Made by a program: the position numbers and the translations under genes
The notes under the pieces: model-generated
Seen by the model: the letters and a program-made list of their open reading frames with translations, nothing else
Databases searched by the model: none
What the model was told of the DNA's origin: nothing
From: Octopus vulgaris
Lineage: Eukaryota
NCBI GenBank assembly: GCA_951406725.2
Contig: OX597842.1
Span: forward strand, 13,144,001 to 13,208,000
DNA length: 64,000 nt
Direction: 5' to 3'
Part shown: positions 27,001 through 36,000 of the stretch, piece after piece
Numbering within the stretch: position 1 is the stretch's first letter
Layout of the letters: each line of letters opens with the position of its first letter

Positions 27001-30000
27001 GTGTCTTCTACTATAGTCTCGGGCCGACCAAAGCTTTGTGAGTGGGTTTGGTAGAAGGAAACTGAAAGAAGCCCATCGTATATATATATGTGTGTGTGTG
27101 TGTGTGTGTGTGTGTGTGTGCGTGTGTGTATGTTTGTGTATCTGTGTTTGTCCACCCCAACATCGTTTGACAACCGATGCTGGTGTGTTTACGTCCTCGT
27201 AACTTAGCGGTTCGGCAAAAAGAGGCCGATAGAAGTACTAGGCTTACAAAAGAATAAGTCCTGGCCTCGATGTGCTCGACTAAAGGCAGTGCTCCAGCAT
27301 GGCCGCTGTCAAATGACTGAAACAATTAAAAGAGTAAAAGACAGTATGAAGGTGAAAGTGGAGGATAAAGAACGAGATTGTGAGGGTTGGCCATTAGGGA
27401 AACACCAAATTACTTTTATCTTCCCGCAAATAGTTTTAGTCTAATCGCGTCAGTAGAAAAAAGCTAAGAGTTATTTATTTTCCACTTTCACCCGACGTAA
27501 CAAGTAATTTTCGAAACGATTAGAAAGAGCGAACTTTTGTTGTCTTTATGCCATTGTGCAAGACTTGCAGTGATTCTTTCTTAACGTTTACCCCTGAAAC
27601 ATACCCGGGATAGAATCGAAGATATTTACTAGTCGTACTTATTTCCAGAAGCGAAAGGAGTAAATGATAAAGCATGACACTTGTTTGTACATCAAAATAA
27701 ATATTGACATCTTTTGAACGAGACATTTTTCTGGTCAGCTCAATCGATATAAAAGTTACAGATTTCTCACTAATATCTACATATGTTTATTCATTTCGGT
27801 AAATGTCGTTGTCAGGTGTTCCAGGTGTGATTGTCATAATTACTCTTGTAATTAACGACACGAACAATTACGTCAGAATTGAACAAATGTAAGTATTTAT
27901 AGGTTTTATTCAACGAAATTTCTCTGTTCGCCACGGCTAATATTTTGCTTGATTTTTTTATGATATGTGTGTGTACATATATGTATATATATATATATAT
28001 ATATATATATATATATATATATATATATATATATATATATATATATATATATATAAAAAAACTTGCTTGGAGGATAAGAAACGACGCGAGGCGCTCAGTC
28101 ATTTAATAACAATTTTAAAATTTAACAAATAGAACATATGAATACATACATATATGTACATACCTACATCTATATGTATATATACATGTATATATATTTA
28201 TATATATATATATATATATATATATATATATATATATATATATATATATATATATATGAGTACAGGACGCCACAAATAAACGTAGAACACAACGAGAAAC
28301 GAAAACATAAAAACAAACAAGGAAACGGACTTTTTTTAACAACAAAAAAACAGAGTACAAGACAAACAACACAAGGAATATTCCCCTTCATCAGCTGCCC
28401 CTGTTTCGACTCAATGCGTGTTTCGAAGGTAAGGGCAGAACACGATCCGGCCGAAGCAGTCCTTCCTGCAAAATGAATTAAAATTCTTTTGCAGAGGGGT
28501 AAAAAAAAAAGAGAAAAAAGTGACAAGAACAGGACAAAAACAGGACAAGGAAGCCAACAGGACAAAAACAAGACAAGGACAAAAACAGGACAAGGAAACC
28601 AACATTGAGGGCTTTTTAAAGCCTAGATGGTGAAAAAATTCGTTGGAGTGCAATGGTCATTTTATTATTTTTCCGGACAATGGACAGGTGTGAAAATAAT
28701 TAAATTAACAGTTATAAACTAGTGAAGAAAAATAATAGTGTGTGTATTTGCCAAAAAAAAAACAAAATAAATAAAATGACCATCCCGGAGGACAACAATA
28801 TCCGTTTCAACACACGATTTCACATCAGGACTCTTGCAAAACTAATTGATATATATATATATATTATTTATTGACCCCCTTCGGTCATGAATGACCATGG
28901 GATTGCACCTAGAAAGTTACCCTCCTAGACACAAGTCCGGGCAAGGTTGTTTATGGAAGACCAGCAGTCGCCCATGCATACCAGCCTCCCCTCTCCACGC
29001 CACCAGTGTTATCCAAGGGAAAGACAAAGGTCGATACAGCTTGGCACCAGTGACGTCGCAACTCATTTCTACAGCTGAGTGAACTGGAGCAACGTGAAAT
29101 AAAGTGCCTTGCTCAAGAACACAACACGCAGCCCGGTCCGGGATTCGAGCTCACAACCTCACGATCGTAAGCTCGACGCTCTAACCACTGAGCCATGCGA
29201 TATATATATATATATATATACAAAAAGCAATAAAGATTCAAGTTAATTTAAATGAATTTACTTGAATATGGTACCTAACTTAGATGCACCAAAAAAAACT
29301 ATACTGTTTTAACAATACAGTAATGTGGGGTGATTATAAGCGAGAAAGAAGCAACAAGAATGGATAGGTTTTTAGTACAATCGTTTCATACAAGGACAGG
29401 CTTTATTAAAAGTTGCAAAAATTACAGCATATAAACGTGTCCCGTACTCATCAGCTAAAATACATGTGAGTTCACTAGACATCCTAGTGGTTGAGGCTAT
29501 ACTCATGAAGTAATGTAGATAATTAAGTAACATAAACAGATTTCCAAAGTTCATTAAAGTTCTTTAAAGATGATGTACAGTCTTATCACAGAAATTTAAA
29601 AAAGTTTTAATAGCATCACAGAGAAGGTGACCTAATCCATAGTGCACATATGAATTTCCAGAGATATGATGAGGGATTACATACTCACAGAAGACAAATT
29701 TATCGATTGTTAATCACAACGAGGTGGGTCTCAATTCCTGCTTATTAGCATTACAGAGAGGGTGAATTAATCCTTTGTATAGATGCACAATTTCCAATGG
29801 TGTAGATGTAAATTTCCAGAGAAATGAAGAGGAATTTCATATTCACAGGCGATAAATTTATCAATGGTTGAACACAATGAGGTAGGTATCAATTCTTGTT
29901 ATATGATTAGGTATTTGCCACATTAATCACATTACTGCTATTTACAAGAGGCTGTAGCTATTTAACTTTTAAAGGCTGAAGGGCTTTCTAGAGAGGCAAA

Positions 30001-33000: not shown

Positions 33001-36000
33001 GTATATATGAATATTATATTTCATCCCCCTTTTATATCAACATGCTGACATCTCGTTTCAGTTACTTACCCCAGGCCACAATTGAACTCGTCAGCAGAAA
33101 ATGTGACTGAAATGTTTTAAATACAACAACCGCAGCCAGAAAAACATGAAGTGCTTCGACTGCCATCCACATCAGAGATGTCAAAAGGAAATAGTGTAAC
33201 AGAGCAGCCACGGCCTACAATAAGAACAACAGCAACAATTACAATAATGATTTGTAACATTGAGATGTATGGCCTCAAATATATATTGTTTTGCAGGGAT
33301 GGGGTATATTACAGTTCTTGATTGATATTTTACATTATTGAACACCAAAATGAAGTTTCAATAAAGAGATGTGTCTCGATACGGAAATGAATTGCGATTG
33401 ATGCATTTGCAAATCCACCAAATCATCGATGTGTAAGGACAACAACAACAACAACAATAATAATAATAATAATAATAAAATAATAATAATGATTATAATA
33501 ATAATAATAAAATGATAATAATAAAATAATAATAATAATAATAATAATAATAATAATAATAATAATAATGATAATAATAATATTAAAATGTCCTTTTGCA
33601 GTACCAGGCAGTGGCTCTCGTGGCTCTGTGATGCTATTAAAACTTTTTCAAAATTCTGTGATAAGACTGTACATCATCTTTAAAGAACTTTAATGAACTT
33701 TGGAAATCTGTTTATGTTACTTAATTATCTACATTACTTCATGAGTATAGCCTCAACCACTAGGATGTCTAGAGAACTCACATGTATTTTAGCTGATGAG
33801 TACGGGACACGTTTATATGCTGTAATTTTTGCAACTTTTAATAAAGCCTGTCCTTGTATGAAACGATTGTACTAAAAACCCAATCCATTCTTGTTGCTTC
33901 TTTCTCGCGTATATATATATATATATATATACATTTACAAATATATATGCGTGTGTGTGTGTGTGTGTGTGTGTGCGTGTCTGTGTGTGTGTGAGTGTGT
34001 GTGTGCGTGTCTGTGTGTGTGTGTGTGTGTGTGTGTGTGTGTGTGTGTGTGTGTGTGTGTGTGTGTGTGTGTGTGTGTGTGTGTGTGTGTGTGTGTGTGT
34101 GTGTGTGTGTGTGTGTGTGTGTGTGTGTGTGTGCTTGTGTGTGTGTGCGCGCGTGTGTGCGTGTGCTTGTGTGTATGTGTGTGTGTATGTGTGTGTGTGT
34201 GTGTGTGTGTGTGTGTGTGTATGTGTGTGTGTATGTGTGTGTGTGTGCATGTGTGTGTGTGTGTGTGCATGTGTGTGTGCGTGTGTGTGTGTGTGCGTGT
34301 GTGTGTGCGCGCGTGTGTGCATGTGTGTGTGTGTGTGCGTGCGCGTGTGTGTGTGTGCGTGTGTGTGCGTGTCTGTGTGTGCGTGTGTGTGCGCGCGCGT
34401 GTGTGTATGTGTGTGTGTGTGTGTGTGTGCGTGTGTTCTGAAGGATAGTGATGTCTTCCAGTGTCTTCATACTGAAACATTCGATAAGTATGCCTTTTGT
34501 GAATGTACAAAACATTTGATTCAATTCCCTTTCTTAATTCCTTTTTCTATCTCTTTCTAGCTGTTGGTTAACCAAGGGACCTTTCTATGCCGCTTTCCTG
34601 GCTCCCGTGGCCATCATCCTCCTCTTCAACCTTACCATTTTCTTCCTCGTTATCTTACGACTCATCTCAATGCAAAGGGACAAACACTTCCAACACAAAA
34701 CAAGAAAACCACGTATTTTGGGTATCGTTGGTTTGATTTCCCTGTTTGGGTTGTCCTGGGTCTTAGCATTCCTCGCTTTTGGCGAAGCAGCTCAAGTGTT
34801 TCAATTACTCTTCGCTATCTTCAATACCCTTCAAGGAATGTTTATTTTCATATTCTACTGTATATGCAAGAAAGATGCCAGAGATGTCATTTGTCCGTGT
34901 TTACGTAAAGGAAAGAAACAAAACGCCAGAAATCGTGTAGAACCAATACAAGTAAGTGAAATCTCGTCATTTCTATCATACCACCACCACCACCACAGCC
35001 AGGGCCAATCGGTCATTATGGGTCTAATCAAAAACACCACTTCTACCAACAAAACCATTGACTATACCATCGTTTTCAGGACAGGATAGACATCGTAATA
35101 AATACCAACTCTACAGATGTCATCATCATCATCACCATCGTCATCATCTGTATGTATGTATACACAAACATATACATACATATATATATATATATATATT
35201 ATGTATTTATATATATATATATATGGGATTAATGACCACTTGACACTGACCTAGTTTCTCTCACCAAATAGTAGTAATTGGCATTTGTTAGTGGCAATTG
35301 CTGTCTTCAACATGAATTCCTTTTATCGTATTCTGAAACCTCTTTTACTCCATTTCTACAATTAAAAACTCTTTATTACTTCTAACCTTATAGCAGTTAG
35401 GAAGAGCCATATCTTGGTCAGTCAGTGGAAGGACTTCACTACCTTATATGTTCTTAAAATTTAAATCTACCTTCTCTATAATGTCTGTATATCTACCTTC
35501 TCTATAATTTGCCACTTAATTTCAAAACTCTTGTATTAAAGGAAAACCTCTATAATTGGCTGATGAGTACTCAGCATCTTAAATCTGTTGTAATACTTAC
35601 AACATTTAATAAAATGATGTAGTGCGAAACAATTGTACCAAATTACCGGAGTCATTCTTGTTGCTTATTTTGAGTATATATATATATATATATATATATA
35701 TATATATATATATATATATATATATATAGATAGATAGATAAAGATAGATAGATAGATAGATAGATAGATAGATAGATAGATAGATAGATAGATAGATAGA
35801 TACGTTCATTTCTATATACATACCTAAAGTGACAGAGGTTGGCGCATGGCTTAGCAGTTAGGACATTCGGCTACGATCTTAAGGTTGTGGGTTCAATTCC
35901 CAGCGACGCATTTTGATCTTGAGCAAGACACTTTATTTCATGTTGCTGGGCAAAAGTGTGTTGTACCTGCATTTCTTAGGGACTAACCATGTTAAATTCT

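Follow-up and report, generated by a model that had tools for sequence, protein, structure and literature searches.

A Penelope-like insertion enclosing an inverted copy of host sequence in an Octopus vulgaris adhesion GPCR gene

We analysed 64,000 nucleotides of the Octopus vulgaris genome (assembly GCA_951406725.2, contig OX597842.1, positions 13,144,001 to 13,208,000 of the forward strand; hereafter the window, whose numbering is used throughout) and found at 29221..33908 a three-part insertion of a Penelope-like element (PLE) in an intron of an adhesion G protein-coupled receptor (GPCR) gene. It joins a 5'-truncated main copy of the element, an inverted copy of host sequence and a short second copy of the 3' end of the element, likewise inverted. 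The anatomy, the source of the host piece, the positions of the ends and the compatible ages of the duplicated parts are observed directly, and we regard the structure as a real, young, single complex insertion. With a probability of roughly 55%, we favour a reading in which a single (TA)n break served for two primings of reverse transcription, the long cDNA went on to a local sense-strand template, and the two cDNA ends were joined via 2 nt. The whole analysis concerns this one insertion and is a single case.

Anatomy of the insertion

The original prediction had described, in this order, a Penelope 3' region, an endonuclease, a reverse transcriptase (RT) cut at the YRDD motif (32701), the complement of host 27208 to 26284 and that of the element's own 29623 to 29340. 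Every coordinate held in a self-alignment of the window and in base-level alignments, which gave the following parts.

29200-29220: left (TA)n target tract
29221-32702, minus strand: main copy of a Hydra-clade PLE, 5'-truncated inside the RT at YRDD, with its 3' end (29221/29222) on (TA)n
29221-29339, minus strand: 119-nt 3' extension (the tail), at one end only
29370-29460, minus strand: putative hammerhead-ribozyme motif of the 3' pseudo-long terminal repeat (pLTR), with core, long stem II, short stem III and stem I; cleavage nucleotide 29376
30923-32020, minus strand: asparagine (Asn)-rich linker, CxCX5C (from 31342) and GIY-YIG-type endonuclease (EN) with C-terminal CxxC..E..N..CxH
32024-32701, minus strand: C-terminal part of the RT (YRDD, NFLD, SNHP, thumb) and first Asn-rich stretch; an in-frame stop is next, at 32021-32023
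32703-33625, minus strand: inverted copy of host 26284-27208, with an apparently blunt junction to the RT
33070-33214, minus strand: copied 145-nt adhesion-GPCR exon, AG/GT splice sites intact, antisense to the host gene
33624-33625, no strand: CT, 2-nt overlap of the host copy with the inverted 3' copy
33624-33908, plus strand: second, inverted copy of the 3' end of the element (29623 to 29340), truncated on its 5' side and bearing a further putative hammerhead motif (33787-33877)
33910-33931: right (TA)n target tract

Aligned to the reverse complement of 26284-27208, the host copy (32703-33625) shows 914 matches, 5 substitutions (in 919) and 2 microsatellite length changes. The inverted arm (33624-33908) aligns to the reverse complement of 29340-29623 with 280 matches, 4 substitutions (in 284) and 1 indel, which supports the earlier description of a PLE bearing an inverted terminal copy. 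Both 3' ends of the element point outward on (TA)n, giving a head-to-head geometry.

The two inner junctions differ. On the minus strand the Tyr codon of YRDD begins at 32701 and the element at 32702. Since the motif reads GGLYRDD in all three Octopus relatives that cover it (of four, P0175-P0178), the RT/host junction probably lacks microhomology and is blunt, as judged from protein rather than from a DNA copy. An Ala codon before YRDD, seen in two Argonauta proteins, would create a microhomology there; it was dropped, as the three closer Octopus relatives have Leu. At the other junction, the CT at 33624-33625 is indeed common to the host copy and the inverted 3' copy, as the original prediction said, but an overlap of at least 2 nt is expected in 18% of random joins of the same base composition. 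A comparison of the host breakpoints with the element found no hidden longer homology, and no palindrome was found at the inner junction. A simple fold-back read artefact is unlikely because the pieces form no contiguous palindrome, each differs from its source, and the ends coincide with conserved element boundaries.

Host gene and source of the captured piece

The features of the host gene that bear on the insertion are listed here; the second copy of the gene is called paralog B.

24545-35089, plus strand: part of adhesion GPCR copy A coding for the seven-transmembrane (7TM) region, exons 24545-24668, 26701-26845, 27816-27888 and 34561-35089
26284-27208, plus strand: sequence from which the captured piece was copied; it belongs to the transcription unit that received the insertion, lies 2.0-2.9 kb upstream of the site and includes exon 26701-26845
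57870-57960, minus strand: empty site in paralog B, the two flanks joined directly

The gene is identified as an adhesion GPCR by Pfam PF00002 (E 4.6e-14), and its four exons yield an open 7TM frame in copy A and in paralog B. The insertion sits in the intron between exons 27816-27888 and 34561-35089. The captured exon lies two places upstream and was copied with both flanking introns, the whole piece comprising a repeat end, an ATT microsatellite, an intron, one exon, an intron and part of a presumed short interspersed element (SINE).

Paralog B (53788-64000) is a large inverted duplicate, 2.1% and 2.6% divergent from A in two single-copy stretches. The inverted segmental duplication as a whole (22477-38019 vs 53788-64000) places two open-frame adhesion-GPCR 7TM regions, about 2-3% divergent, in the window, and its inner edge is marked by a group of further young direct duplications (38037-38833/39467-40275, 39201-39467/40831-41097 and 15817-16242/38014-38435). 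In the full three-way alignment the captured piece agrees with A against B at 61 sites and with B against A at 1; once microsatellites are left out, the counts are 28 and 1. The single B-like site is synonymous, and A and the captured piece have in common 28 bp that B lacks. Since the copy sides with A at 28 sites against 1, the piece is local, derived from copy A, and younger than the A/B split. The site counts thus favour the local source proposed in the original prediction. Origin of the piece from paralog B was considered and rejected on the same 28:1 count and on the 28 bp missing from B.

The host piece has the polarity of the long cDNA's template, and its source lies upstream in the transcription unit. 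As to marks of an RNA template, both flanking introns are retained, 1 of the 3 copy-derived changes is A-to-G, and there is no editing cluster. The gene-sense polarity and upstream position would fit nascent pre-mRNA, but they would also fit the strand exposed on the primer side.

Target site and age of the insertion

The insertion is absent from paralog B, as had been predicted: the two flanks are joined directly at 57870-57960. Both flanks in A consist of (TA)10-11 followed by CA, and B holds about 33-36 nt at the insertion site that are lacking in A. Relative to B, the event left either a target duplication of about 22 bp or a target deletion of about 33 nt. The left tract also borders another element: a SINE-like sequence of 334 bp with a tRNA-like head (28866-29199, minus strand), absent from B, lies in the same (TA)n tract and on the same strand as the PLE. 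The SINE label of this sequence presumes that tRNA-like heads mark such elements; ARAGORN found no tRNA gene over the window.

A single event is expected to leave similar low divergences in the two duplicated parts. The host piece carries 5/919 substitutions (0.54%; 95% interval 0.18-1.3%) and the inverted arm 4/284 (1.4%; 0.38-3.6%). The two are compatible (Fisher p=0.23), and the clearly different ages that would speak against one event were not seen, in what is a weak test with widely overlapping intervals. Under a borrowed clock (a Jukes-Cantor distance of 0.09 for 25 million years; PMC13282606), the pooled age is about 1 million years, vs 3-3.6 million years for the A/B split. Five of the 9 substitutions fall within 50 nt of a junction (p=0.009, for a window picked after seeing the data); a 100-nt window gives p=0.14, and a window-free test p=0.057, which is not significant. 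Because they cluster near the junctions, some of the substitutions may be synthesis errors, as a low-fidelity fill-in would give.

Identity of the element

The element carries an RT followed by a C-terminal GIY-YIG-type endonuclease in one frame, interrupted by one in-frame stop (32021-32023), as in EN+ PLEs. The GIY-YIG label is based on a VIY..YIG pattern and on the published Hydra-clade supplement (PMC8557442); a Pfam scan of both reading-frame pieces gave no match. A phmmer search returned 3740 relatives at E<=0.001, the long ones carrying RT and EN. Among 157 fetched relatives (the top match left out), CxCX5C is present in 110, and 27 reach YRDD. The closest named proteins are all from Octopus: P0001 (O. 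vulgaris) and P0175-P0178 (O. sinensis, O. bimaculoides). P0175 and P0176 are 66% and 70% identical to the C-terminal RT part (32024-32701), and P0001, an O. vulgaris gene model, is identical at 150/151 residues over the Asn-rich part. Searches for full-length relatives of the element found none, and blastn and tblastn found no second copy of its body within the window.

Assignment to the Hydra clade rests on motifs and on the (TA)n target, the RT surviving in its C-terminal part only. The clade is defined by CxCX5C, by CxxC and CxH around E and N, and by a (TA)n target (PMC8557442). The translation of our element contains the CxCX5C linker and the CxxC and CxH motifs flanking the conserved E and N, and (TA)n is found in both flanks and at the empty site of paralog B. 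The N-terminal RWK and DKT motifs of the clade occur in some relatives and were lost here by the 5' truncation. An inverted, 5'-truncated copy (33624-33908) and a tail at one end (29221-29339) are likewise features of PLEs. The size is the exception: the element measures 3.48 kb though truncated, against less than 3 kb in the clade, which is given as a tendency and not as a rule (PMC8557442). Asn-rich inserts, common to the Octopus relatives, explain part of this extra length.

Two further observations concern the element. P0001 (CAJ1099352.1) is named adhesion GPCR G6-like and begins with 151 residues of the Asn-rich linker, with one difference, before continuing into GPCR-like exons without a close match to the window; it is either another copy of the family near a related gene or a gene-model fusion. 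The long 3' region of the element contains an internal direct repeat of about 107 nt (79%; 29639-29745 and 29797-29902), beside which the inverted arm starts.

Ribozyme motifs and natural ends

A scan with the hammerhead core pattern, followed by stem pairing, found a putative core, stems I-III and cleavage triplet in both 3' copies, in a layout that equals that of the published Hydra table. An Rfam scan of 25000-36000 gave low-complexity matches only and no hammerhead, and the minimum free energy fold of a hammerhead copy was no better than that of shuffles (z=0.05). The tail region (29221-29345) folds far better than 200 shuffles (z=-4.6), and the 119-nt tail is a candidate for the structure where reverse transcription starts.

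The main copy ends 154-155 nt past its hammerhead cleavage nucleotide, and the inverted copy (33908, corresponding to 29340) ends 37-38 nt past its own. A third, independent sequence helps to interpret these distances:

35228-35674, plus strand: older relic with a hammerhead motif, flanked by TA tracts; its counterpart in paralog B has the ribozyme part at 56060-56174

The relic resembles the element in its final 117 nt (72% similarity; alignment score 64, vs 29 for the best of 2000 shuffles), has the same ribozyme layout and meets (TA)n 37 nt past its own cleavage nucleotide. The similarity is limited to the ribozyme and 3' end, as the upstream part of the relic aligns with the element no better than shuffles do (score 24, shuffle mean 25). 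The chance that an arbitrary stop falls within 1 nt of the position at which the relic ends is about 0.8%. Published Hydra consensus ends fall mostly into two groups past the cleavage site, 10/24 at 30-48 nt and 11/24 at 88-153 nt, with 3/24 elsewhere (PMC8557442 supplement). This count covers 24 of the 26 rows of the table, the other two being an antisense duplicate row and a motif located 5', and the ends are the curators' consensus ends, read from the position and size columns. Given the match to the relic and the two main groups of Hydra ends, both outer ends of the insertion are natural Hydra-clade termini. The relic follows closely on the stop codon of the large 7TM exon and has the orientation of the host gene; together with the inverted copy, it puts two ribozyme motifs on the sense strand of the gene in copy A.

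How the insertion may have arisen

Resection of broken ends and their joining through microhomology are general features of break repair. For this insertion we infer two primings, a direction and a template for the host copying, and a joining pathway. The endonuclease would have cut both strands of an intronic (TA)n tract, and reverse transcription would have been primed from both ends. From the left flank, a long cDNA would start at the distal start site, 154 nt past the ribozyme cleavage site; from the right flank, a short cDNA of 285 nt would start at the proximal site, 37 nt past it. After 3.5 kb, at YRDD, the long cDNA would part from the element RNA and extend for 925 nt on the host sense strand, from 27208 back to 26284. 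Its template there would be either unspliced nascent pre-mRNA or the top strand, bared on the side of the break from which this cDNA grew. Joining of both cDNAs at their free ends via the 2-nt overlap, with fill-in, would complete the insertion. A second priming is the better reading of the inverted end because the right end is a natural short terminus, seen also in the relic and among the Hydra consensus ends. A PLE protein of the Poseidon clade nicks and extends both strands in vitro, and two RT start sites define its tail (PMC11167929). In L1 (LINE-1), opposite-orientation RT pieces are read as two extended ends joined, and same-orientation pieces as template switches (PMC11702581; PMC13174262). 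The earlier claim that a polymerase copied about 0.9 kb of nearby host sense strand fares well as to polarity, which fits the long cDNA; the template may have been either RNA or DNA, and the order of synthesis is tentative.

Several points weigh against two primings followed by a local switch. Endonuclease cleavage of a fold-back intermediate could also make the conserved right end; the PLE tail has been ascribed to EN-mediated resolution (PMC8557442), and self-priming has been argued for (PMC3846280). The tail measures 119 nt, against 30-40 nt in other PLEs (PMC8557442), and 154-155 nt puts the long end at the upper limit of published values. A Poseidon-clade element, not a Hydra one, supplied the in vitro two-start data (PMC11167929). 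Templated insertions of L1 are typically <250 bp and within 15 bp of the site (10.1101/2024.08.27.596794), whereas ours is 925 bp and 2 kb off. Lastly, the 2-nt overlap is common by chance, the age test has low power, and the window-free clustering of substitutions is not significant.

The original prediction had a single cDNA copy the element RNA, switch to the host sense strand and fold back onto its own 29623 to 29340; the intermediate would be cut or joined to the right flank at 29340. Both added pieces are copies of the top strand, which we expect to be single-stranded on the primer side; the ages are compatible with this account, and self-priming (PMC3846280) and EN-mediated resolution (PMC8557442) have been proposed for the inverted structures of PLEs. 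However, the copy must stop exactly at the natural short terminus, and only an extra cleavage step explains that: the right end lies 37-38 nt past cleavage, as in the relic (37 nt) and in the 10/24 Hydra ends at 30-48 nt. Inverted 5'-truncated copies are moreover routine in PLEs without a host piece, including the Hydra-clade Penelope-13_HM (PMC8557442), and the junction holds no palindrome. A second switch onto the element's own cDNA is not the best reading, and we consider it unlikely. We find it quite improbable that a two-armed element was inserted first and that a later break at or near its inner junction was repaired with a local templated insertion, by a host polymerase in a process akin to synthesis-dependent strand annealing or microhomology-mediated break-induced replication (MMBIR), perhaps with deletion of element sequence. 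The point estimates do differ in the expected direction (1.4% for the arms, 0.54% for the host piece), the region is rearrangement-prone, and inverted local exon duplications arise without retroelements (PMC8756506). Yet the difference is not significant (p=0.23), the arms may differ through different source RNAs or junction-near synthesis errors, and by the borrowed clock a second rare event would have had to hit the inner junction precisely, in a span of about a million years.

Two primings are also compatible with the host piece having been added to the right-hand cDNA, which would invade the duplex at 26284 via 2 nt, copy the bottom strand of the sister chromatid toward the break and be ligated blunt to the long cDNA, or with a free host fragment ligated in. 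The overlap at 33624 and the blunt junction at 32703 fit this equally, and local templated pieces in L1 are ascribed to reciprocal-end processing (PMC11702581). Duplex invasion on 2 nt of homology is weak, though, and resection should expose the source-side top strand, which would be copied direct, not inverted; we hold this variant for doubtful, a shade more so than later repair. There is very little to recommend the view that the piece was copied directly from paralog B, arrived by a transduction put together elsewhere, or is an error of the assembly. The B segment 59462-60253 has the same orientation as the host piece, one synonymous site matches B and not A, and unseen paralogs are possible as distant sources; but the sites favour A 28:1 and B is without the 28 bp, a transduction from elsewhere would need to have inserted 2 kb from the very sequence that it matches, and read chimeras yield neither conserved element ends nor divergences of 0.5-1.4%.

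Consequences for the host gene

The original prediction saw in this structure a direct route to local exon duplication, which overstates it. The copied exon (33070-33214) keeps its splice sites yet is antisense to gene A. Because it lies antisense in a downstream intron, the insertion is no usable exon duplicate and gives no evidence of a route to one. The pre-mRNA of copy A should instead contain a 925-bp near-perfect inverted repeat covering one exon and both its splice sites, and the antisense copy should pair with the original exon, whose skipping (145 nt) shifts the frame. Long double-stranded RNA is a substrate of ADAR enzymes. The likely effect on the host is such a duplex across a coding exon; the group of animals concerned shows very high adenosine-to-inosine (A-to-I) editing (PMC9068888). 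The captured copy of nearby DNA is a rare by-product, of a kind known from human LINE-1, and it is more likely to disturb the original exon than to provide a usable new one.

A bolder proposal, to which we give little credence, is that two-sided priming at (TA)n breaks occurs regularly in PLEs, and that a stretch of nascent host transcript or of exposed local DNA often serves as the bridge between the two cDNAs. If so, octopus introns would gain long exon-complementary sequences at once, which could serve as ADAR substrates or exon-skipping switches; in our case this could mean recoding or silencing of one of two young adhesion-GPCR duplicates, skipping of the 145-nt exon breaking the frame. 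The formation of PLE inverted ends and tails is still debated (PMC8557442; PMC11167929). With both natural Hydra-clade ends on one young copy and a datable third piece, two priming events can be tested against fold-back genome-wide, and local templated capture is extended from somatic L1 to a germline PLE.

Other features of the window

Long minisatellite arrays lie at 2388-5247 (14-bp unit x205) and 43491-45472 (16-bp unit x124). Pieces of a non-LTR retrotransposon RT frame with a C-terminal cysteine motif are found at 46859-48796 (minus strand).

Comparison with known systems

The octopus element resembles the Hydra-clade PLEs (PMC8557442), among them Hydra-1_Obim of Octopus bimaculoides and Penelope-13_HM, in its C-terminal endonuclease, CxCX5C, CxxC/CxH and YRDD motifs, the hammerhead near the 3' end, the (TA)n target, the inverted 5'-truncated copy at its 5' side and the tail at one end. 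Those elements are generally <3 kb, whereas ours reaches 3.5 kb though truncated, with Asn-rich inserts and a long ribozyme stem II, and holds host DNA between its arms, which the passages of PMC8557442 at hand do not describe. The Penelope elements of Adineta vaga (PMC3846280) offer inverted pLTRs, host spacers of 0.9-1.5 kb, Asn-rich inserts between RT and EN, and an intron-containing gene between pLTRs. In Adineta the captured DNA has changed locus and is found ahead of the 3' pLTR or enclosed by direct pLTRs; the octopus piece is of local origin, inverted with respect to its source, and occupies the inner 5'/5' junction.

An inverted duplication of exon 12 of CHM (PMC8756506) likewise placed an inverted exon with its flanks downstream in the same gene, with a predicted pre-mRNA hairpin, and exon skipping was seen. 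It involved no retroelement, was ascribed to fork stalling and template switching (FoSTeS)/MMBIR, and has a short loop, whereas about 5.5 kb and another exon separate the repeat arms in the octopus.

Complex L1 insertions come close in mechanism, with local host sequence copied into the 5' junction and opposite-orientation cDNAs joined by microhomology (PMC11702581). That study gives three insertions with locally templated DNA and joined opposite-orientation RT products; elsewhere, one co-insertion is ascribed to a switch of the RT onto nearby pre-mRNA, along with 0.3% of foldback duplications (PMC10191854), and 22 templated insertions, typically <250 bp and within 15 bp, are described (10.1101/2024.08.27.596794). 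L1 is a different class of retroelement, these cases come from somatic or cultured cells and not from a germline-fixed copy, and the pieces are mostly short (52-220 bp; <250 bp) and adjoin the site. Twin priming in L1 inverts a more 5', mostly non-overlapping part of the same RNA, whereas the inverted piece in the octopus duplicates the 3' end; the insertion works like two-ended priming, and not like L1 twin priming. A full-text literature search, in which few subscription papers were covered, found no PLE described with a local, inverted stretch of host DNA between its two arms. Precedents in L1 exist for each step, and the two-armed PLE with its long local capture may best be regarded as a variant of known behaviour.

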